NCBI GenBank assembly: GCA_043819795.1
Contig: JBDREN010000220.1
Location: forward strand, 1-14,369
Reading direction: 5' to 3'
From: Elusimicrobiota bacterium
GTDB lineage: Bacteria > Elusimicrobiota > Elusimicrobia > UBA1565
DNA length: 14,369 bases
Positions 1 to 14,369 of this stretch are shown piece after piece; within the stretch, counting starts at the first letter, position 1; every line of letters starts with the position of its first letter. Below the pieces are notes generated by a model. That model did no database searches and was not told the DNA's origin. It was given only the letters and a program-made list of their open reading frames with translations. The translations under genes and the position numbers were made by a program.

Positions 1-2
1 AG

Positions 3-92
3 GCCACCGCCATGTTCATGCGCATCCTGCAGATCGACCCCGACAACGCCCAGGCCAAGAAGGCCCTCGAGCGCCTGCGCCGGAAACAATGA
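3..92 (+). CDS. 3' end of a TPR-like protein (partial, runs off the window start)
   Basis: Frame 3 reads ATAMFMRILQIDPDNAQAKKALERLRRKQ*. ILQIDPDNAQAKKAL resembles the end of a TPR repeat. Its TGA (90-92) overlaps the kinase ATG (89-91) as ATGA. Confidence 0.65.
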   Translation, partial: ATAMFMRILQIDPDNAQAKKALERLRRKQ

Positions 93-1465
93 GCATCAGG
101 ACCAAGCTCGCCCTCGTCCTCAGCGCGGGCATCGCCGCGGCCACCGCCGCGGCCGGGATGGGCTTCGTCCAGCTGCAACGCTCCGCCCTGCGCGGGGCCG
201 AGGAGGAGAAGACGCGCCTGCTCATGGAGAGCGTCGGGCGGATAAGCGGGGAGTCCCTGCTGGCCGGCGATCCGCTCATGCTGCTCGACTACCTGGCCTT
301 CCTGCGCCGGGACCGCCCGGAAGTGCACCACTGCCGGGTGCGCCTCGGGGGCGGCTGGCAGGACGTGGGCGGGAAAGCCCCGCCGCAACCTCCCGGGGGG
401 ACCGTCATGAGGGCCGTCTCGACGCCCGCGCCCGACGCGGACCGGCGACGCGGCCTGCCCGCCGTCTCGGTCGAGGTCTATTTCTCGTCGCGCGTGCTCG
501 CGGACCGCGAGCGCGCGGCCTTCGAGGCCATGGTCCGGAACGTCTCCCGGTCCGGAGGCATCGTCGTCCTGGCGGGCCTGCTCCTGTCGATCCTGCTGAG
601 CCGCACGATGACGCGCCGGCTCGTCCGCATCGAAGGGACGCTCGAGGCGATCGGGAAGGGCCGGCTGGGAGAGGTGGCCGACGCCGGGGGCTCCGACGAG
701 ATCGCCCGCCTCGCCCGCGGGGTCAACGAGATGTCCGAAAAGCTCAAGGAGCTCGAGCAGATGAAGAAGACGTTCATCGCCTCGGTGACCCACGAGCTCC
801 GCTCCCCGCTCGGCGCGATCGAGAGCCAGGTCAAGGCGATGCTCTTCGACCCTCCCGCCACCGAGGAGGAGGGCCGGCGCAGCCTGGAGCGCATCCGCAA
901 GAACGCGACGCGCCTGGAGCATTTCGTCGCGAACCTGCTGGAGATGTCCAAGATCGAACGGGGCAAGCTGGACTATCGCCCCCGGCCGGCCGACCTGGGC
1001 TCGATCGTGGAGGATACGGCCCTGTTCCTCGAGCCGTGGGCCAAGGAAGCCGGGCTGTCGATCACGACGGACGTCGAGCCCGGACTGCCCACCGTCCGCA
1101 TCGACCCGGACCTGATCGCCCAGGTCCTGACCAATTTCGTATCCAACGCCGTCAAGTTCACGCGCCCCGGCGGGCGCATCCGCGTCACCGCGAGGAGGAC
1201 GCCCGTCGGCACGCCGGGGCCGCCCGGCGTCGAATGCGCGGTGAAGGACACGGGAGTGGGCATCCCCGCCGAGGCCCTGGGCTCGATCTTCTCGCCCTTC
1301 GAGAGGGTGCGCAACCCGATCCGCGCCACGGGCGCCGGCCTCGGGCTCGCGATATCCAAGTCCATCATCGAGACGCACGGCGGGACCATCGGCGTCGAAT
1401 CGAAGGTCGGCGTAGGAAGCCGCTTCCGATTCCTCCTGCCGCTCAAGCCGGTCCGGAGGCGGTAA
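89..1465 (+). CDS. Membrane-bound HAMP sensor histidine kinase (HisKA + HATPase_c)
   Basis: Two hydrophobic segments (LALVLSAGIAAATAAAGMGF; GIVVLAGLLLSILL), HAMP (GSDEIARLARGVNEM), H-box VTHELRSPL, N-box NFVSNAVKF, G1 DTGVGI, F-box IFSPF, G2 GAGLGLAI. Confidence 0.95.
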   Translation: MSIRTKLALVLSAGIAAATAAAGMGFVQLQRSALRGAEEEKTRLLMESVGRISGESLLAGDPLMLLDYLAFLRRDRPEVHHCRVRLGGGWQDVGGKAPPQPPGGTVMRAVSTPAPDADRRRGLPAVSVEVYFSSRVLADRERAAFEAMVRNVSRSGGIVVLAGLLLSILLSRTMTRRLVRIEGTLEAIGKGRLGEVADAGGSDEIARLARGVNEMSEKLKELEQMKKTFIASVTHELRSPLGAIESQVKAMLFDPPATEEEGRRSLERIRKNATRLEHFVANLLEMSKIERGKLDYRPRPADLGSIVEDTALFLEPWAKEAGLSITTDVEPGLPTVRIDPDLIAQVLTNFVSNAVKFTRPGGRIRVTARRTPVGTPGPPGVECAVKDTGVGIPAEALGSIFSPFERVRNPIRATGAGLGLAISKSIIETHGGTIGVESKVGVGSRFRFLLPLKPVRRR

Positions 1466-1467
1466 TA

Positions 1468-1508
1468 CGCGCACCTGGAGATCCGCGATGCGGATCTCCA
1501 GGTGCGCG
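1468..1508. repeat. Perfect inverted repeat, 19-bp arms, 3-nt loop; possible terminator, RNA stabiliser or REP-like element
   Basis: cgcgcacctggagatccgc (1468-1486), gat, gcggatctccaggtgcgcg (1490-1508). Starts 2 nt after the kinase stop. No poly-U tail. Confidence 0.85.
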
Positions 1509-1621
1509 CTTCCTCAATTGGTGCTTCATGTCGGACGCGCCGCGTCCGACCTTTCAATGCCGTTCGTGCCGGATTCACGCAATATTTTCGTCACTTTTTC
1601 ACCCTACGGTATTGGCAGGTC

Positions 1622-3100
1622 ATGCACGGCATACGCATTCTGACGATCGCGCTGTTCGCGGCGTGCCTCGGCGCCTCCCCCTTATGGGCGGAGGCGGAGG
1701 AGCAAGAGATCGCCGCGCGCCTGGAACGGGACGCGACCGCGGTCCTCGAGCGCATGTTCGGGCCCGGGCGCGCCGAGGTCCTCGTCACCGTCGAAGGGGA
1801 ATCCTCCCAGATCCAGACGCAGAGCGAGATGATCACGCCCATCAGGCGGGAGCCGCCGACGGAGCGCCCGGACATGCCCGGATACGAGCCGTCCAAAGAC
1901 GAGGTCGATTACTACCAGAAGGACCTGGAGAGCTCGGCCCGCCGGGCGAGCTTCCTGATCAAGAGAATCCTGCTGACGGTCGTCCTCGACGAGACCCTCA
2001 CCTCGGCCCAGGAGAACGACGTACGCCGCGTCCTTCCGGACCTCCTGCGCATGGACGTAGAGCGCGGCGACGAGATGGCCGTCCTGCGGGCCAAGATACT
2101 GCCGCCCTGGAAGGCCCTCTGGGCGAGCCCCAAGGGGCTGCATACGCTCTCCCTCTCCGGCGCCGGGGCGGTCCTGATCATCTTCATCTGCGTGTTCGTC
2201 TGCGTCGTCGCCTACGTCGCTTCCGTGCGCATCTCGCGCGCCTTCGCCGTGGCGGTCGTCTCCAGGTTCTCCCAGGAGAGGCCTCCCGCGGCGCCCCGTC
2301 CCCCCTCCTTCGCCGCGGGTCCGTACGCGTCCGGCGAGGGAGATCTGCTGCTTCCGGGCGGCGCGCCCAGCATCATCGAGACCATCGGCGAGTTCTCCCC
2401 GTTCGGGGCCCCGCCCGCCATCGGACGGCGCTTCGATTTCCTCGCCGCGCGCGAGCCGGCCGACGTCGCGGAGCTGCTGTCCAAAGAGCCGGCCGCGGAC
2501 CTGGCGCTGATGTTCGCGTATCTGGCGGACTCCGACCCGGACCTCGCCAGCCGCGTCTTCGCCCAGCTTCCGCCGGAGATCCAGGCCGACGCGTCGCAGG
2601 CCCTCGTCGACCTCGAGACGGTGGACCCCGTACGCCTGGGGATGATCGAGAGCCGGCTGAAGTCCATGATCGAGTTCGGCGTCCGCGGGCCGGAGCGGCT
2701 CGCGAGGATCCTGAGCCGCATGGCGCCCGAGAAGCGGGAGTCGGTCCTCGGCACCCTGACCACGCGCGACCCCGAGGGCGCCGAGCTGGTGGAGCGGACG
2801 GTGTTCCCGTTCGAAAGCATCGCCGAGTTCAAGTCCCACGAGCTCCGGCGCCTCATCGCGACCGTGCCGTACGAGGACTGGGGCGTGGCCCTGCGCGGGG
2901 CGCCGCGCAAGCTCGTATCGAGCGTCCTGGCCGAGCTCCCGGCAGAGGCGCGCCAGATCGTCAAAGTGGCCGCCGAGTCGCCCCAGTCAAAGGAGAACGT
3001 TCTCGAATGCCGCTCCAAGATACTCTCATGGATCTCCGCGCTCTCCGCGAAGGGGCAGCTCATGATCGCCCCTCACAGCGCCCCCCGGGGATTGGCCTGA
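1622..3100 (+). CDS. FliF C-terminal ring-building (RBM3-like) domain fused through one TM helix to FliG middle and C-terminal domains
   Basis: ATG 1622 after ggcaggt gives a signal-peptide-like N-terminus (MHGIRILTIALFAACLGASPLWA). RBM3-like LE...VLERMFGPGRAEVLVTV...IKRILLTVVLD...RGDEMAV; TM GAVLIIFICVFVCVVAYVASV; FliG-like FDFL...KEPAADLALMFAYL...DPEGAELVERTVFPFE...VALRGA...ALSAKGQLMI. Confidence 0.8.
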   Translation: MHGIRILTIALFAACLGASPLWAEAEEQEIAARLERDATAVLERMFGPGRAEVLVTVEGESSQIQTQSEMITPIRREPPTERPDMPGYEPSKDEVDYYQKDLESSARRASFLIKRILLTVVLDETLTSAQENDVRRVLPDLLRMDVERGDEMAVLRAKILPPWKALWASPKGLHTLSLSGAGAVLIIFICVFVCVVAYVASVRISRAFAVAVVSRFSQERPPAAPRPPSFAAGPYASGEGDLLLPGGAPSIIETIGEFSPFGAPPAIGRRFDFLAAREPADVAELLSKEPAADLALMFAYLADSDPDLASRVFAQLPPEIQADASQALVDLETVDPVRLGMIESRLKSMIEFGVRGPERLARILSRMAPEKRESVLGTLTTRDPEGAELVERTVFPFESIAEFKSHELRRLIATVPYEDWGVALRGAPRKLVSSVLAELPAEARQIVKVAAESPQSKENVLECRSKILSWISALSAKGQLMIAPHSAPRGLA

Positions 3101-3125
3101 GGTTCCGACCGCGAGCCCCCGGGCG

Positions 3126-4544
3126 ATGAGCCGCGACGACCTCAACGCCACCCGGCGCCGGATGCGCGACCTCCTCGACCAGGCCGCCGCCCTCGAGAGC
3201 TCGGCCGCGTCCGAGCCCCCTCTTCCTCCGGGCCGCTCCGGATCGGACGCCCGCCTCCGGGAGGCTCTCGAGCTCAAGCGCCGCGTCGTGCGCAGGCTCG
3301 CCGCGGTCCAAGAGAAGCTCAACGAGCAAAAGGCGCGGGGGCAGGCCGCCGAGAGGGCTTCGAGCGGGCAGAAGCGCGAGCTGGAGGCCCAGCTGGAGGA
3401 GGCCAAGAGCGCCCTGCGCAAGGCGGCGCTCGCCTGGGAGGAGCAGCGGTCCGTCCTCGAGGCCAAGCTGCACGAGGAACGCCGGGCGCTGGAAGCCGCG
3501 CGCGAAGAGCTCGAGAAGGCGCGGGCTCCCTTCAACGAGCAGCGCGCGGAGCTCGAGGCCCGCATCCGGGAGCTCCACTCCCGCCTCCAGAACGCCCGGG
3601 CGGCCTGGGAGCGCGAGAGGCTCGCTCTCGAGTCGAAGGTCGAGGAGACCAACGAGAAGTTCCAGGCCGCGTACGCCATGGTCGAGCACGACCGCGCGCG
3701 ACGGGACCGGGAGCACGCCGAGCTTCGCGGCCTCCACGAGAAGCTGCGCCGGCGCTTCGAGAAGGCCCGGGAGGCCTGGCGGCGCAAGAGGGAGTCCCTG
3801 GTCTCCCGCCTGCGGGAGGCCCGCGAGAGAGCGCAGGCGGCCGAGACGGAAGCGCGCAAGGCCGTCGAGATGTCGCCGGTGCCCCCCGTCGAGCCCGTTC
3901 TCGAGCCCGTCTGGCGGCGGATCAGCGCCCTCCTGCTCAAGCCCCTCTCCCAGGGCTACGCCCACCTGCGCACCTTGGCGGCCGCCCCCCTTCCGAAGGG
4001 GCAGCGGGCGGTCCTGAGGCTGGCGGCCGGGAACCTCGCGCAGGCCCTCGACCGCGTCAAGATCGTCGGGCAGTTCCTCGAGGAGGGCGGACCGGCGCCC
4101 GCTCCGGGCCAAGTGGAGCGGAGCGTGGAAGCCGCCCTCCCGGAATGGGAGGCCGCCTTCCGCAAGAGGAGGATCGCCATCGTCCGCCAGCTGGGCGCCG
4201 GCCTGCCGGCGGTCCGGTTCCGGCAGGAGACGCTCCGCGTCGCGCTCTACCAGGCGATCCGCAACGCCTACGACGCGATGCCTCGAGGCGGACGCCTGGT
4301 CGTGCGCGCCGACAAGGACCGGGAGACGGGCGGCGTGCGCGTCACGTTCTCCGATACGGGGCCGGGCTTCTCCGAGGAAGCGCTCGAGTCCCTCTTCATG
4401 CCGTTCTCCTCGCGGAAGACGGATCGCCTCGGCCTGGGACTCGCCCTCATCCGCGCCACCCTGCGCGGCTGGGACGGCGACGCGGAGGCCGGGAACGTCC
4501 CCGGCGGGGGAGCGGCCCTTACGCTGCGCTTCCCCCCCGCGTAG
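3126..4544 (+). CDS. Cytoplasmic coiled-coil protein with degenerate DHp and HATPase_c domain (probable pseudo-histidine kinase)
   Basis: About 200 aa of E/R/A/L-rich coiled coil, H-box-like ISALLLKPL without His, N-box QAIRNAYDAM, G1 DTGPGF, F-box LFMPF, G2 LGLGLAL. No TM segment. Confidence 0.85.
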   Translation: MSRDDLNATRRRMRDLLDQAAALESSAASEPPLPPGRSGSDARLREALELKRRVVRRLAAVQEKLNEQKARGQAAERASSGQKRELEAQLEEAKSALRKAALAWEEQRSVLEAKLHEERRALEAAREELEKARAPFNEQRAELEARIRELHSRLQNARAAWERERLALESKVEETNEKFQAAYAMVEHDRARRDREHAELRGLHEKLRRRFEKAREAWRRKRESLVSRLREARERAQAAETEARKAVEMSPVPPVEPVLEPVWRRISALLLKPLSQGYAHLRTLAAAPLPKGQRAVLRLAAGNLAQALDRVKIVGQFLEEGGPAPAPGQVERSVEAALPEWEAAFRKRRIAIVRQLGAGLPAVRFRQETLRVALYQAIRNAYDAMPRGGRLVVRADKDRETGGVRVTFSDTGPGFSEEALESLFMPFSSRKTDRLGLGLALIRATLRGWDGDAEAGNVPGGGAALTLRFPPA

Positions 4545-4574
4545 AGCCCGCCCGCCCGGGCCGACCCGGTCCCC

Positions 4575-5285
4575 TTAGGTGCTCTTTAGGACGTAACCGA
4601 CCCGGACCACGGTCTGCAGGCGCCGGCCGAAGGAGCCCAGCTTGCGCCGGAGCGTCTCGACGTGCTTGTCGACCGTCCGCGTCGTCATGGTAGGATCCCC
4701 GTGCCAGACCGCCTCGAGGAGGGCTCCCCGCGTCAGCACCCGGTTGCGCTGGCGCAGCAGATAGAGGAGGAGGTCGAATTCGAGGCGGGTCAGCTTGACC
4801 TCCCTTTTCTGCAGCAGGCATACGCGCCGCTCGGGAAACAGCGTCAGGGCGCCGAGCCGGATGGAGTCCTCCACGGAAGGCTTCCCCGTGCGGCGACGAA
4901 GCAGGACCTCGACGCGCACCAGCAGCAGCTCCCGGTCGAGCGGCTTGAGGAAGTACTCGTCGGCGCCGGCGTGGAGCCCGTCCACGATGTCCTTTGTGCT
5001 CTTCTGCCGGCCCGACATGGAGACGATGAGCATGTCCCGGCTCTTCGGGTCGGCTCGCAGGACCCGGATGATCTCCTTTCCGTCCATGCCGGGAAGCTGC
5101 ATGTCCAGCAGCACGGCGTCAGGGCGGCTCCTCAGGATGGAGTCGAAGAAGCGTCCGGGAGTGGGGTAAAGCGCGGTGTCGTAGCCTTCCCCGTCGAGGA
5201 GCCGCTCGAGGTAGTCGCCCAGCTCGGGATCGTCCTCGACGACCGCGATCCGGTACCCCCGGGGAGGCACGCCGCGACCGCTCAT
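4575..5285 (-). CDS. OmpR/PhoB-family DNA-binding response regulator
   Basis: Likely start ATG 5285 (MSGRGVPPRGYRIAVVEDD), overlapping the upstream stop as ATGA. REC: EDD, LLDMQLP, FLKP. Winged helix: LTRLEFDLL...RTVDKHVETLRRKL...TVVRVGY. Confidence 0.95.
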   Translation of the reverse strand: MSGRGVPPRGYRIAVVEDDPELGDYLERLLDGEGYDTALYPTPGRFFDSILRSRPDAVLLDMQLPGMDGKEIIRVLRADPKSRDMLIVSMSGRQKSTKDIVDGLHAGADEYFLKPLDRELLLVRVEVLLRRRTGKPSVEDSIRLGALTLFPERRVCLLQKREVKLTRLEFDLLLYLLRQRNRVLTRGALLEAVWHGDPTMTTRTVDKHVETLRRKLGSFGRRLQTVVRVGYVLKST

Positions 5286-5659
5286 GCCTCTTCCGGGCTC
5301 AGGGCGGCCTTGACGCGCGACAGAAGGTCCTCGATCTCGAAGGGCTTGACCACGTAGTCGGTGCCGCCCGAACGCAGCCCTTCGGAGACGCGCGCGACGG
5401 CCGAGCGCACGGTGCAGAAGATGATGGGCGTGTCCGGACGCGGACCGTCGGCGCGGATCTTCCGGCAAATCTCGAAGCCGTCCATGTCGGGCAGGCGGAC
5501 ATCGAGCACGACCAGGTCGGGCTTCTCCTCGGCGTACGCCTTCAACCCCTCCTCCCCGTTGGCGGCCGTCACGACGGCGTAGCCCTTCTTGCCAAGGAGG
5601 TGGCTGATAAGCGAGCGGTAGTCGTCCTCGTCTTCGACGATAAGGATCTTCTTGGGCAT
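5282..5659 (-). CDS. Single-domain response regulator (receiver only)
   Basis: KILIVEDE, VLDVRLPDMDG, FCT, VVKPF; 125 aa with no output domain. Confidence 0.95.
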   Translation of the reverse strand: MPKKILIVEDEDDYRSLISHLLGKKGYAVVTAANGEEGLKAYAEEKPDLVVLDVRLPDMDGFEICRKIRADGPRPDTPIIFCTVRSAVARVSEGLRSGGTDYVVKPFEIEDLLSRVKAALSPEEA

Positions 5660-5668
5660 ACAGCCGAT

Positions 5669-5697
5669 AGTTTAGAGGGCCCCTGTTACCTTGTCAA
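5669..5697 (-). promoter_or_regulatory. Sigma70-type promoter for the two response regulators
   Basis: Minus strand TTGACA (5697-5692), 17 nt, TAAACT (5674-5669), 9 nt, ATG 5659. Confidence 0.75.
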
Positions 5698-5728
5698 GGC
5701 GTAGGGATCAGGCGTAGGGATCAGGATC
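5697..5728. repeat. Tandem 13-bp direct repeat plus partial third copy
   Basis: aggcgtagggatc at 5697-5709 and 5710-5722, followed by aggatc (5723-5728). Confidence 0.85.
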
Positions 5729-5786: not shown

Positions 5787-8117
5787 TTATCGCGCGAGGG
5801 TTCGCTCCACCTGGGCCAGCTTGGCCTCGAGCGCCTCGTTGCGCGCGCGGAGCTCCTTAACGGCCTCGATGAGATGCATCTGGATCTGCAGACCGTAGTG
5901 GATGCGCTTGTAGCCGTCGTCTCCCGCGACCACCCAGTCCGGGAACACCTTCTCCACATCTTGGGCGACGAGGCCGTATTGCGTGCCGGAGCCGAGCGCG
6001 CTGTCAATGAACTCGAAGCTCACCGGCTCCAGGCGGGCGATTTTCTCCAGGGAGCCCGACAACGGCGCGACGCCCGTTTTGAGCCTGCTGTCCGATGAGC
6101 AAGAGCCCGCGATGCAGTTCCCGCTGTCCCTGTACCCGCCGCTCACGTTCACGTCGCCGTCCGCCACGTCCAGCTTGTACGCGGGGCTCGCCGTATCGAT
6201 GCCGACGTTGCCGCTGGGCGCGATCACCAACCGGGGAGTCGAATCATTCTGCCCCCTGATCTTGAAAATCTTGTCTACGGGGCCGACCCCCAGCTCCCAG
6301 TAGAGGTCCGAGCCCGTGGCCTGGTCCATGCGGATAAAATACTCGTTGGTGCCCCTGATGTAGATCCCGGTCTTGATGTCGGTGGTCGCCGCCGAGCCGA
6401 TGTTCAGCAAGCCGAAGTCGTTGCTGCCATAACGCCCCAAATACATATCCCCGTCCACATGAAGCCTCTTGAGCGGGCTCGTCGTTCCGACGCCCACGTT
6501 GCCGTTGCTGCTGTCGATATGGAAGAAGACGTTGTCCGTATGGGTGGCGATCTGGAACGGCGATCCCGTTTCCGTGGTGACATTCTTCCCTATCTTCCAG
6601 TCGTTACCCCCGGCGGAACCGATATACAAATAAGACGATTTTACGCCGCCCCCCTCCCGATAAAGATGCAGCAACTGAGCCACTGAAGAACTCTGGACAT
6701 GAAGGGGAGCGTTCGGACCCGTCGTCCCGATGCCCACGTTGCCGCCCGACTCAAAAATAGCGGAATCGCCCAGCGTTTCGGCGCCGGTGAATTTAGGCAG
6801 ATAGTCCGCCGTCCCGCTGCCGCCGACACCTCCGCCGCCCGATGGCCAGGAGGTGATCTCGTCGCCGCCGAGGTTGAATGCCGCTGCCTTCACCGTCCCG
6901 GCGACGTCCAGCTTCTTCGTGGGGCTCGCCGTCCCGATGCCGACGCTGCCGTCGGGTATCACTGTATTCCTGTCGCTGGCCAGGATGATATCTCCATCCG
7001 GATGCGTCGTCTGGATCGTGAAGGGGCCTATATTCGATTCCAGCACCATCATGCCGGCATATATCTTGCCGTTGCCGTAGACCGCGATCCCCTCGGAAGC
7101 GCCGAGATCCAGGAGCCGGCTCCCCGTGGGATTCTGGACGTATCGCGTCTTGAGGGTTCCTCCGCTTCCCATATCCAGGACCGGCCAGTTGTTCCCCGAA
7201 TCGTTCCTCATCTGCAGGATGGGACCGTTCCCGGATTCCAGGTCGAGCTTGACCGCCCAGTTCTTCGTTCCGCCGACCCCGGACAAGCGGATGACGCCGT
7301 CAGCGTCATTGCCTATCGTCTCCCCGCTCTTCATGGTCAGCGTCCCGTCGACGTGGAGCGCGGTCGCCGGGTTCGTCGTACCGATGCCGACCTTGCCGCC
7401 GTCGTAGTAGATCAGCCCCGTCCCCTCCGTCCACAGGCTCGAGCCCCCGCCGAGGCTCACCGGCGTTCCGTTCTCGCGGAGCTGGCCCGTGAAGTTGATG
7501 TCGCCCGCCACGTCCAGCTTGTAGCCCGGGCTCGTCGTCCCGATCCCCATATTGCCTGACGGATCGAGGAACGCCGCCTGAACGCCGTTCCTGGTCTGGA
7601 TACTCAATCCCGGGTTATCGGTATACGTGATCTGATTGAGGGCGGAGCCGCCGAAGTTCAGCGCCGGAGGGCCTCCGTGCTCGGACGCGATGCTCCCGCC
7701 GTCCCCTCCCATGTTGAAGATCCAGCCCCCGACCCTCGCGCTCCCCGCCACGTGGAGCGTCTCGGAAGGGGAAGCCGTTCCGATGCCGACTTTCCCGTCG
7801 TTGTCGACGAAAAGGGCGTCCGTCGGGCTGCCGTCCGCCGCGTCGAGCGAATTGCCGTCCCCCGCCCCGGGGTCTCCCGTGTCGCCCTTGGGGCCCTCAG
7901 GCCCTTGAGGTCCGGTATCGCCGGCATCGCCCTTCGGGCCCTGCATACCGATCTCGCCCGGGTTTATGAGCTTGAAACGCAAAGTGCCGTCGTCCTCCGT
8001 CTTGATGATACGCTTGTTCCCTCCGGAGTCCTTTCCGCGCATGACGCCGCTGTCTTCGGCCGATACGTATACCGAGCACAAACCGAGCGCCAGCCCCGAC
8101 AGAATCAGTCTTTTCAT
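5787..8117 (-). CDS. Secreted trimeric fibre/adhesin-like protein with collagen repeat, GNVGIGT repeats and C-terminal intramolecular chaperone (Peptidase_S74-like)
   Basis: ATG 8117 with GGAGG RBS; signal peptide MKRLILSGLALGLCSVYVSA; about 11 Gly-X-Y triplets; seven GxVGIGTxxP-type repeats; SDSRLK...GLVAQDVEKVFPDWV...Y...LIEAVKEL plus terminal coiled coil. Confidence 0.85.
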   Translation of the reverse strand: MKRLILSGLALGLCSVYVSAEDSGVMRGKDSGGNKRIIKTEDDGTLRFKLINPGEIGMQGPKGDAGDTGPQGPEGPKGDTGDPGAGDGNSLDAADGSPTDALFVDNDGKVGIGTASPSETLHVAGSARVGGWIFNMGGDGGSIASEHGGPPALNFGGSALNQITYTDNPGLSIQTRNGVQAAFLDPSGNMGIGTTSPGYKLDVAGDINFTGQLRENGTPVSLGGGSSLWTEGTGLIYYDGGKVGIGTTNPATALHVDGTLTMKSGETIGNDADGVIRLSGVGGTKNWAVKLDLESGNGPILQMRNDSGNNWPVLDMGSGGTLKTRYVQNPTGSRLLDLGASEGIAVYGNGKIYAGMMVLESNIGPFTIQTTHPDGDIILASDRNTVIPDGSVGIGTASPTKKLDVAGTVKAAAFNLGGDEITSWPSGGGGVGGSGTADYLPKFTGAETLGDSAIFESGGNVGIGTTGPNAPLHVQSSSVAQLLHLYREGGGVKSSYLYIGSAGGNDWKIGKNVTTETGSPFQIATHTDNVFFHIDSSNGNVGVGTTSPLKRLHVDGDMYLGRYGSNDFGLLNIGSAATTDIKTGIYIRGTNEYFIRMDQATGSDLYWELGVGPVDKIFKIRGQNDSTPRLVIAPSGNVGIDTASPAYKLDVADGDVNVSGGYRDSGNCIAGSCSSDSRLKTGVAPLSGSLEKIARLEPVSFEFIDSALGSGTQYGLVAQDVEKVFPDWVVAGDDGYKRIHYGLQIQMHLIEAVKELRARNEALEAKLAQVERTLAR

Positions 8118-8249: not shown

Positions 8250-9596
8250 TCAGACGCTGATGGACTGGCGCTCGCGGGCCGCGGTGCAGAGCAGCGGGCT
8301 GCGGGCCTGGCGGACCCTCTCTTGGCACTCGTCGAGGTACTGGTCCATCATCTCATCGGTGTGGACGGGGTCATGGTGGAACAAGACGAGGTGCTTGCAG
8401 CCCGCGGCGAGCCCGCGATCGACGGCGTCGTTGAACGTGCTGTGCCCCCATCCGCGCTTGAGATTGTACTCCTCCTCGGTGTACTGCGCCTCGCAGACCA
8501 GGATGTCGCTGTCGCGCGCGAACTCCACGATCGCCTTGTCCTGCTTGCGGGTGATGTCGCTGTCCCCGTTGAGGCGCCGGTAGCTCTCATGGTCGCTGAT
8601 GTAGGTGACCGACTTGCCGTAGGCCTCGAAGCGGAAGCCGATCGCGATGCCCGGGTGGTTGAGGAAGTGGTAGCGCACCCGCACCAGGCCGATCTCGATC
8701 GGCCCCTCCATCTCGAAGAAACGCAGCTGGCAGGCTAGGCTGGTCAGGGGCACCGGGAAATAGTCGGCGGCCATCTGCCCGCTGAAGACGCGCCCGAGGC
8801 TCTTGCCGGCTCCGTGCACGCTGTAGACGCTGAAATTGTTGCGTTTGACGTAGAAAGGGGTGAAGAACGGGAAGCCCTGTATGTGGTCCCAGTGGGTGTG
8901 CCCCACGAAGATGTGGCCCTCGATCGGCTTGTCCCCGAACTCCTTGAGGAGCGAGACCCCGAGCTCCCGGATGCCCGACCCGCAGTCGATGATCACGAGC
9001 CGCCCCCCGATGCGAAGCTCGGTGCAGACGGTATTGCCCCCGTAGCGGACCGTGTCCGGGCCCGGAGCCGGGGAGGACCCGCGGGTGCCCCAGAATCGGA
9101 CCTTGACCTCCGTCTCCGCGGAGCCGGACACGGGAGCGCTCTCCACCGGACCCTTTACCGCGACAGAGCGGCTGAAGGAACCGCTCTCCCCCGCCGCCAG
9201 AGCGGCCTGCTCGGGAGCGCTCCGGCAGTCTCTCCCCAGCAGCTCTCGGACCTTATCCCTGAGGTCCTCCGCCTTGTAGGGCTTGGTCAGATAGTCGTCG
9301 GCCCCGGCGTTCTTCGCCTCCTGGATGTCGGTATCGTAGGACTTCGAGGAGGTGATGAGGATGCGGGGACCCGCGGAGCCCGTCTTCTCGCGCAGCTTCT
9401 CGCAGACCTGGATCCCGTGCATCCCCGGCAACATCAGGTCCAGCACGATCAGGTCCGGCAGGTACGATAAAGCCTTCTCAACGCCTTCCTTGCCGTCATA
9501 GACCTGCTCGACTTCGTACTCTTCCCTTTTGAGTATCTCGGTCGCGTAGGCGGCGAGCGCGATGTCGTCCTCGACGACCAGTATCTTACCTTTCAT
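8250..9596 (-). CDS. Receiver domain fused to a metallo-beta-lactamase-fold hydrolase (RNase Z/phosphodiesterase-like)
   Basis: N-terminal REC (VVEDD, LDLMLP, ITS, LTKP). MBL motifs FWGTRGS, YGGNT, IDCGSG, HTHWDH, NHPG, ISDHE, WGHS, FHHDP. Confidence 0.92.
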   Translation of the reverse strand: MKGKILVVEDDIALAAYATEILKREEYEVEQVYDGKEGVEKALSYLPDLIVLDLMLPGMHGIQVCEKLREKTGSAGPRILITSSKSYDTDIQEAKNAGADDYLTKPYKAEDLRDKVRELLGRDCRSAPEQAALAAGESGSFSRSVAVKGPVESAPVSGSAETEVKVRFWGTRGSSPAPGPDTVRYGGNTVCTELRIGGRLVIIDCGSGIRELGVSLLKEFGDKPIEGHIFVGHTHWDHIQGFPFFTPFYVKRNNFSVYSVHGAGKSLGRVFSGQMAADYFPVPLTSLACQLRFFEMEGPIEIGLVRVRYHFLNHPGIAIGFRFEAYGKSVTYISDHESYRRLNGDSDITRKQDKAIVEFARDSDILVCEAQYTEEEYNLKRGWGHSTFNDAVDRGLAAGCKHLVLFHHDPVHTDEMMDQYLDECQERVRQARSPLLCTAARERQSISV

Positions 9597-9606
9597 CTCA
9601 GCCGCT

Positions 9607-9638
9607 AAGAGGGTAACAGACCCTCTTTAAGAAATCAA
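9607..9638 (-). promoter_or_regulatory. Putative sigma70 promoter overlapped by an 8-bp inverted repeat (operator-like)
   Basis: Minus strand TTGATT (9638-9633), 17 nt including an extended TG, TACCCT (9615-9610). Inverted repeat aagagggt-aacag-accctctt at 9607-9627. Confidence 0.5.
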
Positions 9639-9691
9639 GAGTCATCGACCAAAATCACGCCTTTGTAAAATATGCAATAAAATAAAGCGCT

Positions 9692-12517
9692 TCATCCTCC
9701 GTCCAAGGCGCGAAGAGTGTCTTGAAGGCTCGCATGCTTTGCCTCGGCCTCCTGGCGCCGCTGGCGGACCTTGGCGACCTCGGACTCGGGGGCGCGCTCG
9801 ACGAAAGAGCGGTTCGCCAGCTGAGCCTCGCAGCGCCGCAGATCTTTGTCCACTCGGTCAGCTTCCTTGGCCAGCCGAACGCGCTCCTTGGCGATATCGA
9901 GGATCCCCGCCAGCGGCACGTAAAACGTGAGCTTCCGGGCCACCGCCGTCGCGGACTGGGGCGGCCGGCCGCCCGAGGCGGCTTCGAGCGTCTCGAGACG
10001 CGCCAGGTGCGTGACCGTGGCCGCGTCCTGGGCGAGCGTCCCGGCCTCGGTCTTCTCCCCCGCGTAGAACGCCTTGATCCTGAGCCCGGGCGGGACGTGC
10101 AGCTGGGACCTCAGGGCCCGGATCGCGCGGACGGCCTCCATCAAGAACCCCATGCGGCCGGTCGCCTCTTCGTCGGCCCATCCCGACGGGTCCGGAGCGG
10201 CGGCGCCGAGCACGAACTCGGCCGTCTCCCCGGAATAGGGCCGCAGGGCGGCGAAGAGCTCCTCGGTGATGTAGGGCATGAACGGATGCAGGAGCTTCAG
10301 GGTCCCGGAAAGGACCTGCACGAGGATCGTCCTCACGGCCGGGGCGCGCTTCTCGTCGCTCAGGCCCAGCTTGGCCAGCTCCACGTACCAATCGCAGAAC
10401 TTGTCCCAAAGGAACCCGTAGACCTCATCGGCGGCCGCCGCCGTGTTGTAGACCTCCATATGGCCGCGGACGCGGGCGACGCACGCCTCGAACTCCGCCA
10501 GGATCCAGCGGTCGGGCAGGTCCAGAGACGCGCGGTCCAGCGCGCCCAGGCGGTAGCCCCCCTCGGGCGCCGTCTCGGGCACGTTCATGAGCACGAAGCG
10601 CGTCGAGTTCCAGATCTTGTTGGCGAAGTTCCTCGGGCCGACGATGGAGTCCTCGGAGAACGGGATGTCCCTCCCGGGGTAGGCCTGGGACGTCAGCGCG
10701 AAGCGGAAGGCGTCGGTCCCGAACTTGTCCATCGAGATGAGCGGGTCGATCACGTTGCCCAGGGACTTCGACATCTTCTTGCCGTGCTTGTCGCGCACGA
10801 TCCCGTGGATGACCGCGTGATCGAACGGCACCGCGTCCCGGAAATAGAGGCCCATCATCTGCATGCGGGCCACCCACAGGTACAGGATCTCGTATCCCGT
10901 CACCAGGACGCTGGTCGGATAGTAGAACTTCAGATCCTCCGTCTCCTGCGGCCAGCCGAACACCGAGAGCGGCCAGAGCGCAGAGGAGAACCAGGTGTCG
11001 AGAACGTCGGTGTCCTGCAGGAAACGGGACTTGCCGCAGCAGGCGCAGGGCTTCCCGGGGGAGAAGGCGATGGGGCCCTCCGTCTTTCCGTCGCCGGAAC
11101 GGAACTGGTAGCGCCCCTCGGCCGCGATCGTCTCCAGCGAAACGCCGTCCGCGAGCAGGTCCCGGACCGGCCGGTCCGGGCCGCCCTCTCCATCGGCCGC
11201 CGGCACGAAGAGCCTGTCACCCAGGCACTCCGCGCAATACCAGATCGGGACCCGGTGGCCCCACCAGATCTGCCGCGAAAGGCACCAGTCCCGGATGCCG
11301 AGCAGCCACTGCCGGTACGGCTTGGTCCAGGAGCCCGGATAGATCGTGAAGTCGCCCTTGTCGACGGCCGCCAGCGCCTTCTTGGCGAGCGCGCCCATCT
11401 TCATGAACCACTGCTCCGAGACCAGCGGCTCGATCGCCTGTTGGCAGCGGTAGCAGACGCCCACCGCGTGGCGGTAGTGCTCGGCCTTCTCGAGGAGCGG
11501 CTTCCCGTCGGCGCCTAAGAGGGCCTCCAGATCGGCCACCACTCGCTCGCGCGCCTCCTCGCGGGAGAGCGCGGCGTACTTCTCGCCGGCGGCCTCGGTC
11601 ATCTTCCCGTCGAGCCCGATCACCAGCCGGGGGCCGTCCATCTCCTCGAGGTGCCGCTGCCAGATGTCGAAGTCGTTGGGATCGTGGCCGGGAGTCACCT
11701 TGACCGCGCCGGTCCCGAACTCCCGGTCGACGTGCTCGTCGGCGACCACCGTCAGCGAGTGCCCAGTGAGCGGCAAGGAGAGCTTCTTGCCGACCAGGTC
11801 CTTATAGCGCGCATCGTCCGGGTGCACGGCCACGGCCGTGTCCCCCAGCATGGTCTCCGGCCGGGTGGTGGCCACGGTGACGAAGCGCCCGGGGTCGTCC
11901 GAGAAAGGATAGCGCAGGTGCCACAGGTGCCCCTTGCGGTCCTCGTACTCGACCTCGATGTCCGAGAGCGCGGTCCCGCAGCGCACGCACCAGTTCACCA
12001 TGCGCTCGCCGCGGTAGATGAGGCCCTTCTTGTAGAACTCACGGAACGAATGGTAGACGGCCTTGGCCCGGGCCTCGTCCATCGTGAACGCCTCGCGCCC
12101 GAAATCCAGGCTGCAGCCGAGGTGGGTGAGCTGGCCGAGGATGGTCTTCTTGCAGTCCCGCACCCACACCTGCATACGCTCGAGGAACTTCTCGCGGCCC
12201 AGCGCCTGGCGCGTCTGGTTCTCGGCCCGGAGCTGCTTCTCCATGACGTTCTGGGTCGCGATGCCCCCGTGATCGGTGCCCGGCACCCAGCAGGACTCGC
12301 GCCCCTGAAGCCGGTGGTAGCGGATCATGACGTCCTGGAGGGTGTTGTTGAGGGCGTGTCCGATATGGAGCGCGCCCGTGACGTTGGGCGGCGGGATGAC
12401 GATAGTGAAGGACCGCTTGCCGTCTCGCGACGGGCGGGAAAAGAACAGCCGCGCCTTTTCCCAGGCGGCCATCCACTTCTTCTCGACGAAACTTGGAGAG
12501 TAGGTTTTCTCGAGCAT
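9692..12517 (-). CDS. valS: Valine--tRNA ligase
   Basis: Start MLEKTYSP at ATG 12517; PPPNVTGALHIGH, GTDHGGIATQ, ATTRPET, GTGAVKVTP, DWCLSRQIWWGH, DVLDTWFSS, KMSKS, C-terminal coiled-coil arm. Confidence 0.98.
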   Translation of the reverse strand: MLEKTYSPSFVEKKWMAAWEKARLFFSRPSRDGKRSFTIVIPPPNVTGALHIGHALNNTLQDVMIRYHRLQGRESCWVPGTDHGGIATQNVMEKQLRAENQTRQALGREKFLERMQVWVRDCKKTILGQLTHLGCSLDFGREAFTMDEARAKAVYHSFREFYKKGLIYRGERMVNWCVRCGTALSDIEVEYEDRKGHLWHLRYPFSDDPGRFVTVATTRPETMLGDTAVAVHPDDARYKDLVGKKLSLPLTGHSLTVVADEHVDREFGTGAVKVTPGHDPNDFDIWQRHLEEMDGPRLVIGLDGKMTEAAGEKYAALSREEARERVVADLEALLGADGKPLLEKAEHYRHAVGVCYRCQQAIEPLVSEQWFMKMGALAKKALAAVDKGDFTIYPGSWTKPYRQWLLGIRDWCLSRQIWWGHRVPIWYCAECLGDRLFVPAADGEGGPDRPVRDLLADGVSLETIAAEGRYQFRSGDGKTEGPIAFSPGKPCACCGKSRFLQDTDVLDTWFSSALWPLSVFGWPQETEDLKFYYPTSVLVTGYEILYLWVARMQMMGLYFRDAVPFDHAVIHGIVRDKHGKKMSKSLGNVIDPLISMDKFGTDAFRFALTSQAYPGRDIPFSEDSIVGPRNFANKIWNSTRFVLMNVPETAPEGGYRLGALDRASLDLPDRWILAEFEACVARVRGHMEVYNTAAAADEVYGFLWDKFCDWYVELAKLGLSDEKRAPAVRTILVQVLSGTLKLLHPFMPYITEELFAALRPYSGETAEFVLGAAAPDPSGWADEEATGRMGFLMEAVRAIRALRSQLHVPPGLRIKAFYAGEKTEAGTLAQDAATVTHLARLETLEAASGGRPPQSATAVARKLTFYVPLAGILDIAKERVRLAKEADRVDKDLRRCEAQLANRSFVERAPESEVAKVRQRRQEAEAKHASLQDTLRALDGG

Positions 12518-12523
12518 GGACGG

Positions 12524-12529
12524 ATTATA
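12524..12529 (-). promoter_or_regulatory. -10 box of a probable leaderless valS transcript
   Basis: Minus strand TATAAT-ccgtcc-ATG: consensus -10 six nt before the start codon, with no SD. Confidence 0.65.
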
Positions 12530-12566
12530 GGAAAAGAGACCGGCCGCCGAAAAGCGAGACCCTCCC

Positions 12567-13427
12567 TTACTTGGCGCCGCTGTTCGGGTTCCTGGCGAAA
12601 CGATTCTGCTCGGCCGACACGAAGCTCGCCAGGCTCCGGGAGATCGCGCGGGCGACGCGGTCCTGGAAGTCGGGGTCGGCCACGATCGCGGCCTCATCGC
12701 GGTCGCGGAGGTTGCCGATCTCGATGAGGACGCTCGGGATCCGGGGGCTCTTGAGCACGGCAAAAGGCCCCCGGTCGACGTAACGGACGTTCTTGATGCC
12801 GGCCTTTCGCAGCGCCCGCCCCAGGTGCTCGGCGAGCCGTCGCGAGCGGGAGATCTGGGACCTCGGCGGCGGCGGCAGGATCCTCTCGCCCGGCTCCCTC
12901 GGGGGCCCTTTGGGGATGCGGGGGTTCCGGCCGTAGACGTACGCGATCACGCCCCGCCCCTTGCGCCCGCGCACGTTGTCGACGTGGATCGAAACGAAGG
13001 CCTGCGCGCCGACGGCCTCGGCGCGCAGGACGCGGTCGGTCAGCGACACGAACTCGTCGGACCAGCGCGTCAGGAACGGTGAGATGCCCGCCTTGCCCGC
13101 GAGATGATCCGCGACGCGCTGCGAGATCCGCAGGACGATGCCTTTCTCCACGCGGCCGTAGACCACGGCCCCGTCATCCTTGCCCCCGTGCCCCGCGTCG
13201 ATCACAACGACCTTGGGCAGTATGCGGGGAGGAAGCCCGGCCGCACCGCCGCCCCGGCTCACTTGCTCAGGGGGCGGAGTGCGGCCTCCCCGGAGGGGAG
13301 CGGTGCCCGGCCCCATAAGAGATTGCGTGGGGGCCGTGGTGCGGCCTCCCTCCCGGTCGGCCGTCCATGTCGGGGCGGCGCACAACAGCGGGACCGATAA
13401 CGCCGCGCAGAAGGCCCGAAATAACAT
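12567..13427 (-). CDS. N-acetylmuramoyl-L-alanine amidase (Amidase_3), exported
   Basis: Signal-peptide-like N-terminus, Pro/Gly linker, Zn and catalytic motifs IDAGHGG, VEK, LTR, FVSIH, PSVLIEIG. Confidence 0.93.
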   Translation of the reverse strand: MLFRAFCAALSVPLLCAAPTWTADREGGRTTAPTQSLMGPGTAPLRGGRTPPPEQVSRGGGAAGLPPRILPKVVVIDAGHGGKDDGAVVYGRVEKGIVLRISQRVADHLAGKAGISPFLTRWSDEFVSLTDRVLRAEAVGAQAFVSIHVDNVRGRKGRGVIAYVYGRNPRIPKGPPREPGERILPPPPRSQISRSRRLAEHLGRALRKAGIKNVRYVDRGPFAVLKSPRIPSVLIEIGNLRDRDEAAIVADPDFQDRVARAISRSLASFVSAEQNRFARNPNSGAK

Positions 13428-13484
13428 TCGCCAATTACTTAACAGGAATATGCGATTTTTTCAAGTGTTTTCTTGTTTCTCGCC

Positions 13485-13513
13485 TTGACCGTGAGGACCG
13501 GAAGTGATACTTT
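13485..13513 (+). promoter_or_regulatory. Putative sigma70 promoter for the hypothetical gene
   Basis: TTGACC (13485-13490), 17 nt including an extended TG, TACTTT (13508-13513). A second -10-like TACGAT at 13522-13527. Confidence 0.55.
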
Positions 13514-13532
13514 GGGTCCTATACGATATACG

Positions 13533-14234
13533 ATGAAGGCCCAGAAATTATTCAACGAGACGTTCTTCGGCTTTCTCGAGAAGCTCTTTCTGATCGTATC
13601 GTTCGGGGAGATCTCCGGGTTCGGGCTGACGCAGGCGCAGCACGCCCTGTCCTCCAAGTACTCCGGCCTGCTGAAGAACCTGCTCCAAAGCCCCGCCTAT
13701 GCCGGGATGCTCGGACAGCCCACGGCCCTGCTGGCGCGCGACCTGCCGTCCCAGCTGACCCGGAAGCTCACGGACCGGGCGTTGGAGAAAGCCGTCGGCT
13801 CCGTCGAAGGCGCCTGCTTCATCTATGCCCACACCCTGCTGGACACGGCCCTGTCGGATTATTGCCGCGCGGCGGCCATGGCCGATCCCAAGGGCTGGCG
13901 CGCGCTCGCCGCCAAAGCCGCGTCCCCGGACTCGAAGGCCATGGCCGCGGGGGCGGCTTACGAGCGGCGGCGCGGCCCGCTCATCGAAAGGGTCGATCTC
14001 TTGACGGCCGGCTGCCGCCCCCCGGCCGGCTGGGCGCCGGCCCCGGGCATCCGCCTCGACCGCCGGAGGATCGAGCGGCTGGACCGCCTGAGGGAGCGCG
14101 CCGTCCGCGAGGGAGGGAAGGTCCCCAGGGCCGAGGACGAGATGCTCTTCATGGTGCGTACGGCCCTGTACCTAGCGACGCTGCTCTGCTTGCGCTACGG
14201 CTTCCGCATCGACCCGGCCGTCCTGCTGCGCTAG
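13533..14234 (+). CDS. Hypothetical alpha-helical protein
   Basis: ATG 13533 (MKAQKLF) downstream of a promoter-like signal; GC-rich third codon positions like neighbouring genes; no family recognised with confidence. Confidence 0.75.
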   Translation: MKAQKLFNETFFGFLEKLFLIVSFGEISGFGLTQAQHALSSKYSGLLKNLLQSPAYAGMLGQPTALLARDLPSQLTRKLTDRALEKAVGSVEGACFIYAHTLLDTALSDYCRAAAMADPKGWRALAAKAASPDSKAMAAGAAYERRRGPLIERVDLLTAGCRPPAGWAPAPGIRLDRRRIERLDRLRERAVREGGKVPRAEDEMLFMVRTALYLATLLCLRYGFRIDPAVLLR

Positions 14235-14369
14235 CAGCCCGTGGCAAAAGTATTTCGGATGGCGAAATCGCCTGGAGCGAGCCGAGCCAAGGCGCGACGA
14301 GGGAGCATCCCTCGACGGGATGTGACCGAGGAGCAACGCAGGCGCAGGCCGCTTCCAGGCGATTGCAGG
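14235..14369. repeat. Structured intergenic element (MITE/REP-like or ncRNA), truncated by the window end
   Basis: Outer stem aatcgcctgga (14266-14276) / tccaggcgatt (14354-14364); inner stem catccc (14306-14311) / gggatg (14317-14322). Confidence 0.5.

Follow-up and report, generated by a model that had tools for sequence, protein, structure and literature searches.

A FliF(RBM3)–FliG fusion of Elusimicrobiota as a candidate one-chain rotor of a flagellum-free, MotAB-driven envelope motor

FliG and the stator proteins MotA and MotB are treated as a flagellar signature. In the flagellum, the rod receives loops that project from the top of the FliF collar (10.1101/2020.12.05.413195), and torque in E. 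coli is described as involving the pairing of R90 with D288/D289 and of E98 with R281 (PMC12505986). A natural FliF–FliG fusion, described as lacking RBM3, is known from Chlamydia (Bergeron 2016, PMC4768692), and engineered Vibrio FliF–FliG fusions are reported to form rings with a flexible FliG part (10.1101/2023.02.06.527414). In Bacteroidota, CTD-bearing adhesins are anchored by PorP-like barrels (PMC9143113), which are described as being moved by a motor-driven ring or track (PMC12635249). Many motAB, flbD and fliG homologues were reported in flagellum-less free-living Elusimicrobiota by Uzun et al., who called their role 'enigmatic', and main-text passages of that report mention neither a fusion nor a barrel (10.1101/2022.07.08.499144). 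Searches by term within four further reports (10.1101/765248, 10.1101/2023.11.21.568195, PMC13277936 and 10.64898/2026.06.07.730766) gave nothing on the present system, and no description of its gene cassette was found in the literature covered, which lay mostly outside subscription journals.

The window, the whole 14,369-nucleotide stretch of DNA analysed here (assembly GCA_043819795.1, contig JBDREN010000220.1), encodes a FliF–FliG fusion whose features and neighbours are listed in Table 1. The profile of its RBM3 region matches residues 237–429 of E. coli FliF, and this domain is presumably periplasmic, behind a signal peptide whose cleavage site was placed from the sequence pattern. At the collar tip, P86 is one of two invariant columns in an alignment of 45 diverse fusions; a hydrophobic-PG motif is present in the N-terminal region of 217 of the 236 fusions, while the LPG motif is absent from four flagellar FliFs of Elusimicrobiota. 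By position only, this tip may be the counterpart of the FliF loop. The protein is 43–48% identical to its orthologs over the full length. Three public read runs contained only short pieces of window positions 1–5700, none of them spanning the FliF/FliG junction, and so neither support nor contradict it. The fusion is real and conserved, neither a flagellar gene nor a chimera. The initial annotation had read an RBM3-TM-FliG(M,C) architecture with a signal peptide, which Pfam, profiles, hydropathy and a structure model together confirm. It had also claimed the loss of RBM1/2 and FliG-N, and this stands as well: a profile built from five FliFs detected RBM1/RBM2 in none of the 236 fusions and gave no significant match among the genes of the window's own genome, and a linker replaces the FliF-C/FliG-N joint.

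Table 1 Features of the window around the FliF–FliG fusion.
Feature	Position (nt)	Strand	Basis or remarks
Final 29 codons (3' end) of the gene for a 665-aa PorV/PorP-like outer-membrane barrel bearing C-terminal TPRs	1..92	+	Translation equals the C-terminus of C66:350-2347
Membrane HAMP-HisKA-HATPase sensor kinase	89..1465	+	Pfam; H-box present; same place in orthologous loci, between barrel and fusion
FliF(RBM3)-TM-FliG(M,C) fusion	1622..3100	+	492 aa
Predicted Sec signal peptide	1622..1690	+	Residues 1-23; hydropathy peak 3-21; homologs align from about residue 24
RBM3 split ring-building motif with beta-collar hairpin	1691..2101	+	Pfam and profile match
(L/M)PG motif, tip of collar hairpin	1874..1885	+	P86 conserved
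Single TM helix, equivalent of FliF TM2	2159..2251	+	Hydropathy 172-210, peak 3.09; model helix 180-217
Disordered Pro/Gly-rich linker, in place of FliF-C/FliG-N joint	2273..2422	+	pLDDT <50 over 218-267
FliG middle domain	2429..2671	+	
FliG C-terminal domain	2753..3067	+	Pfam
Cytoplasmic coiled coil fused to HATPase domain, no recognisable H-box	3126..4544	+	Pfam
Two response regulators, OmpR-type and single receiver	4575..5659	-	Pfam

The fusion resembles the flagellar motor core in its RBM3/collar fold, TM2 and FliG-M/C folds, and the family resembles it in a stator with plug and peptidoglycan anchor and in the flbD-motA-motB order. It differs in being one chain without TM1, RBM1/RBM2 or FliG-N, in occurring in a genome without export gate, rod, hook, filament or FliM/N, and in the loss of R281 and R297 in most members. 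The initial annotation knew FliF–FliG fusions as Salmonella mutants; the natural one of Chlamydia, with a complementary architecture, had already been described (PMC4768692). Like the protein studied here, it is a natural fusion in a non-flagellated bacterium, but it is described as combining an SctJ-like part with FliG-M beside an injectisome, whereas the Elusimicrobiota fusion combines RBM3 only with FliG-M/C and is accompanied by stators, FlhA not being found. Specifically, profile searches of the fusions and of the window's own genome did not find injectisome- or Chlamydia-type features (SctJ-like RBM1/2, SctV/FlhA). The engineered or selected fusions of Salmonella and Vibrio are likewise covalent rotors, reported to form rings and to support rotation (10.1101/2023.02.06.527414, PMC4768692), but they retain RBM1/2 and work within a full flagellum.

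The rest of the barrel gene at the left edge of the window lies on contig C66, which an exact 141-nt overlap joins to the window contig (C220); C19, C66 and the window are linked in this way, with no other exact overlaps found at those ends. The joined locus encodes, in order, a giant surface protein, the barrel with TPRs, the HAMP kinase, the fusion, the coiled coil-HATPase protein and the two opposite-strand response regulators. The barrel matches the NCBIfam model PorV_fam with an E value of 2e-18 and 66.9 bits, below the cut-off of 90. The giant gene comprises an open frame of 9,999 codons followed by another of 1,057 codons, in which the same repeats carry on and a T9SS-like CTD forms the C-terminus; its coding signal, on C19(-)/C66, changes frame once, about 5,060 nt before the window, owing to an assembly indel or a real frameshift. 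In most cassette types a coiled-coil gene comes after the fusion. Relatives of the window's copy carry a second kinase and motB-motA between the coiled-coil gene and the response regulators, all of which are missing here. The motAB of these relatives find their best own-genome matches, at 35–38% identity, in the stator of the C56 cassette, and an ortholog of their subfamily's stator was not found elsewhere in the genome, the best matches being the stators of other cassettes.

Further along the window, positions 5787–8117 (-) after the regulators encode a secreted, fibre-like protein of 776 residues that combines a collagen stretch with a Peptidase_S74 chaperone domain. Locus L036, too, has a collagen-like gene close to the cassette. 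Positions 8250–14234 hold a gene for a receiver and metallo-beta-lactamase-fold protein, valS, an Amidase_3 protein gene and a 233-residue ORF that matches no Pfam family; these seem to have no connection with the cassette. A repeat of about 140 nt (14229–14369) closes the contig; the genome contains 32 matches to it that are 90 nt or longer, including one in the C218 cassette before flbD. Rfam gave no match in the window.

Among 251 Elusimicrobiota genomes, FliG_C was found in 92 (up to six matches per genome), MotB_plug in 101, both in 91 and FlhA in 6; FlhA is absent from 86 of the 92 FliG-positive genomes. Two large small-genome families, probably gut lineages, have FliG in only 1/79 and 1/70 genomes. 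From 150 listed of 230 matches we hand-picked 60 loci, and 55 fusions (two loci with two) were left after setting aside four flagellar loci with separate fliF/fliG, one duplicate, one truncated gene and one short unfused gene. In these hand-picked loci, a PorV-like gene lies at most two genes upstream of 39 of the 55 fusions (chance about 1.5% in the window's own genome), motA lies within six genes of 35, and one or both accompany 54; the giant genes that precede the barrels have T9SS-like CTDs at their ends. Some cassettes have no barrel or no stator. For the window's subfamily, counted over loci with sufficient flank, the PorV-like gene is present in 18 of 20 (2.5 kb or more upstream), a CTD gene in 16/18, and motA in 13 of 16 (6 kb or more downstream). 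The orthologous loci share the same gene order, with flanking kinases in nearly all. Across dozens of families, full-length frames and gene order are conserved, while orthologs of the window's copy are patchy within the taxonomic order.

A variant cassette on metagenome contigs (L117–L123) consists of a gene for an ATPase that we take to be ExeA-like, one or two tandem fusions and a long coiled coil, with flbD-motAB in two loci; a cheW-cheY-cheA-MCP-like operon adjoins the cassette back to back in four of the seven. Among Atlas clusters, the combination of the two domains recurs under the labels Cloacimonadota, Bdellovibrionota, Pseudomonadota, Thermodesulfobacteriota, Balneolota and others, which serve as leads only; the taxonomy of 3 of 30 named clusters gave two Elusimicrobia/Elusimicrobiota and one Ca. 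Saganbacteria, and one archaeal label is probably a binning error. A plasmid search returned ordinary FliG only (6 records), and a word-indexed protein search with a 45-row alignment returned almost only the window's own subfamily. In a FliG tree, from which two duplicate and four unaligned rows were left out, deep nodes have a support of 0.17–0.4, so the tree does not establish the monophyly or origin of the fusions.

The window's own genome (4.99 Mb, 90.3% complete, 241 contigs) contains five FliG_C genes, all of which have RBM3 (local profile) and a TM helix ahead of FliG. Downstream of three of these fusions lie motA and motB, accompanied in one case by flbD, which gives three motAB cassettes, none in the window. 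FlhA, FliP, FliM, the FliM/N C-terminal domain, rod and flagellin families were not found in this 90.3%-complete genome, with positive controls. Four flagellar loci from Elusimicrobiota were compared with it as well: their rod and hook genes and those for FliE, FliH and FliF have no counterpart there, the only matches to structural genes of these loci being FliG, MotAB and FliI-to-ATP-synthase. CheA/CheW/MCP were not found with three distant queries, while PilB/PilT/PilC are present. The initial annotation had noted no flagellar gene in the window and proposed a non-flagellar role; the genome-wide search, in which export, C-ring, rod, hook and filament families were not found, supports such a role. 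What found no support is its picture of an orphan gene and a lone self-assembling ring: the gene is one of five paralogs, has motA beside it in most orthologous loci with enough flank, and is part of a cassette that also encodes a PorV/PorP-like barrel and T9SS-tagged surface proteins and begins just left of the window.

On C56 (L014:10139-12622), a histidine kinase is in frame with the FliF–FliG rotor in a protein of 828 residues, and relatives keep frames of 820–860 residues; the charge pairs of this rotor and its stator are lost. A c-di-GMP-I riboswitch lies ahead of the C218 cassette (L013:5153-5232). The most degenerate fusion, on C214 (L015:3531-8481), has genes for a TPR protein and a pair of coiled-coil proteins after it but no barrel or stator, and L101 is arranged likewise. 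C100 encodes a stand-alone RBM3-only protein of 205 residues (L113:9299-9913; E 2e-10 to the local profile).

The genome encodes 29 CTD proteins (C-terminal matches, local profile) and 29 PorV-like barrels. The C218 barrel matches PorV_fam with 110.9 bits, over the cut-off of 90, and CHU_C exceeds its cut-off in orthologous loci, marking CTD-tagged cargo. An SprA-like protein of 1838 residues (L115:4010-9523, C134) matches TIGR04189 with an E value of 1e-41 and 142 bits, below the cut-off of 200. The SprA-like gene occurs in 228 of the 251 genomes, including most of the two large small-genome families without the motor, so retention of the translocon does not depend on having the motor. Elusimicrobiota seem to share T9SS-like secretion as a core trait. 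The system resembles Bacteroidota T9SS/gliding in its putative SprA-like translocon, in carrier-type barrels beside CTD-tagged giant proteins, and in a proposed ion motor and ring as energiser; it differs in that the Elusimicrobiota ring would sit in the inner membrane and derive from FliF/FliG, and in carriers that bear TPRs and no tail cysteines. Coupling through disulfides of the Bacteroidota type was rejected, with tail cysteines in 0/33 and 0/26 barrels. GldM was found in 0/251 genomes and, like GldN, in 0/1 for the window's own genome, by searches that gave no true positive in control genomes either.

The cassette stators match flagellar MotA/PomA/MotP models best (E 1e-39 to 1e-64) and TolQ barely, and their plug and OmpA anchor set them apart from ExbBD/TolQR. 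P173 and P222 of MotA are kept in 53/53 proteins and D32 of MotB in 60/69; five of the remaining nine have Asn and are encoded by the second of two tandem motB genes (L075, L079, L089, L099 and L100), which suggests a heterodimeric MotB with one proton path. Position 281 of the rotor is basic in only 11 of 87 fusions and position 297 in one, while an acid at 288/289 is present in 80/87. Of 50 cognate stator–rotor pairs, 37 keep at least one charge pair; in the window's subfamily 5 of 13 do so and eight keep none. The torque-helix positions R281/D288/D289 (E. coli numbering) correspond to E442/V449/A450 in the window's fusion, and the interface is most eroded in both kinase-linked subfamilies. 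Judged from these counts and substitutions, the family resembles a motor whose electrostatic interface is reduced, and the window's copy ranks among its least motor-like forms. Across the 50 pairs, stator and rotor distances are correlated (Mantel r 0.87, compared with no more than 0.17 in shuffles), which indicates co-inheritance, not residue coevolution. E98 is acidic in 7 of 10 pairs with a basic 281 versus 10 of 40 without, a comparison confounded by kinship, and Q98 also occurs in two flagellar MotAs of the phylum.

The reading that we favour, at a probability of roughly 0.55, is that the fusion is the one-chain rotor ring of a flagellum-free, MotAB-driven envelope motor acting on T9SS-type adhesin carriers. 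Its directly observed basis is the architecture, the cassette, the failure to find flagellar export, rod, C-ring or filament genes, and the intact proton-path residues of the stators. In the proposed mechanism, the signal peptide would be cleaved and the RBM3 domains would polymerise into a periplasmic S-ring with a β-collar, one TM helix per subunit bringing FliG-M/C to the cytoplasm, where a dedicated peptidoglycan-anchored MotA5B2 stator would rotate the ring via FliG-C. The proline of the collar tip is invariant even though a rod is missing, so some other periplasmic partner is expected, and the adjacent TPR-bearing barrel is the obvious candidate: the LPG tip would engage its periplasmic TPRs. 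The barrel would in turn hold the giant CTD-tagged surface protein, exported through the phylum's SprA-like translocon, and rotation would pull, load or move this adhesin, as GldLM and the GldKN ring do in Bacteroidota. Because PorP-like carriers are moved by a motor-driven ring or track there, the cassette would be a flagellar engine doing that energy chain's job. The main motor of the genome is probably the C218 cassette; the window's copy, from a kinase-flanked subfamily and with stator genes and torque-helix charges lost, may be a passenger, sensing or decaying subunit. Several points count against the motor reading: the scarcity of a basic 281 and of R297, the missing charges of the window's copy and most of its subfamily pairs, the floppy FliG part described for an engineered FliFG ring without FliM/N (10.1101/2023.02.06.527414), the SprA-like gene in most genomes of the motor-less families, cassettes without barrel or stator, the variant with the ATPase upstream instead, and the lack of cysteines for Bacteroidota-style disulfide coupling.

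The main rival, especially for the window's subfamily and the C56 kinase–rotor fusion, is a load or surface sensor, in which stator, rotor and adhesin barrel form a mechanical antenna that is read by the co-encoded kinases and regulators and does little or no useful work. Though unlikely overall, it has its best chance in the kinase-linked subfamilies, the window's copy included: kinases surround that subfamily in nearly all loci, the C56 paralog and its relatives carry a kinase in frame with the rotor, these two groups have the most eroded charges, and a c-di-GMP riboswitch precedes the main cassette. Most cassette types, however, have no kinase, the same genome holds similar barrel-kinase-regulator clusters without a rotor (C158, C172), and the proton-path residues are conserved. 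An improbable alternative is a non-rotary, SpoIIIAG-like ring or conduit, with MotAB as a Ton/Tol-type energiser pulling the barrel and FliG as a mere scaffold. The flagellar-type stators, with plug and OmpA anchor, argue against it, as does the constant retention of the stator-contact domain FliG-C, with an acidic helix in 80 of 87 fusions; it would account for the family-wide loss of R281 and R297, for the failure to find FliM/N, which would stiffen a C-ring, and for the stand-alone RBM3 protein, and RBM3 folds are reported to form non-rotary rings elsewhere (PMC4768692).

We see little chance that the fusion plays an accessory part in type IV pilus twitching or in some other gliding machinery, with the T9SS-type neighbours as incidental cargo. 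Twitching or Gld gliding was raised by Uzun et al. (10.1101/2022.07.08.499144), pilus genes are present in the genome and one variant cassette adjoins a che operon, but the linkage to PorV in 39/55 fusions speaks against this, and pilus genes near a fusion were seen only in L103, among annotated neighbours inspected without a systematic count. Scarcely probable, too, is a relic of a lost flagellum or, for the window's copy alone, a gene decaying after stator loss. The missing kinase-motB-motA, the lost torque charges and the patchy orthologs would suit decay; the full-length frames and conserved order across dozens of families, the full-length identity to orthologs, and flagellated members (G062, G228) that retain a canonical fliF/fliG operon plus the fusion do not. 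Finally, an ordinary flagellar rotor gene outside its operon or a misassembled chimera can be dismissed as extremely improbable, since the incompleteness and fragmentation of the assembly, which would allow for it, are countered by six flagellar families not found with working controls, the lack of matches to rod or hook genes, FliE, FliH or FliF from four same-phylum flagellar loci, the FliG-positive genomes without FlhA and the same fusion in many genomes.

The system does not qualify as a flagellum, GldM and GldN of the recognised T9SS motor were not found by the searches above, and it appears to belong to no described family; together, the data point to an undescribed ion-driven envelope motor. 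A wider picture, which we offer tentatively and at somewhat less than even odds, is that free-living Elusimicrobiota drive a type IX-like secretion and surface-adhesin system with several one-chain rotors, each with its own MotAB, turning or pulling PorV-type carriers of adhesins of 5,000–12,000 residues, which would yield a new form of surface motility or of prey or host capture, with kinase-linked paralogs reading the load. The findings caution that fliG/motAB annotations are unsafe for calling motility. If true, a phylum-wide cassette of RBM3, FliG-M/C and stator wired to T9SS-type carriers would mean that the flagellar engine has been reused with neither its axial parts nor its export gate, and would extend T9SS-like secretion to a phylum for which no description of such secretion was found in the literature covered. 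No working FliG–MotAB motor outside the flagellum would precede it, and it would be a natural minimal three-protein rotary motor, offering a three-protein rotor–stator set for reconstitution, and it would provide a candidate answer to how flagellum-less Elusimicrobiota, including magnetotactic ones, move.
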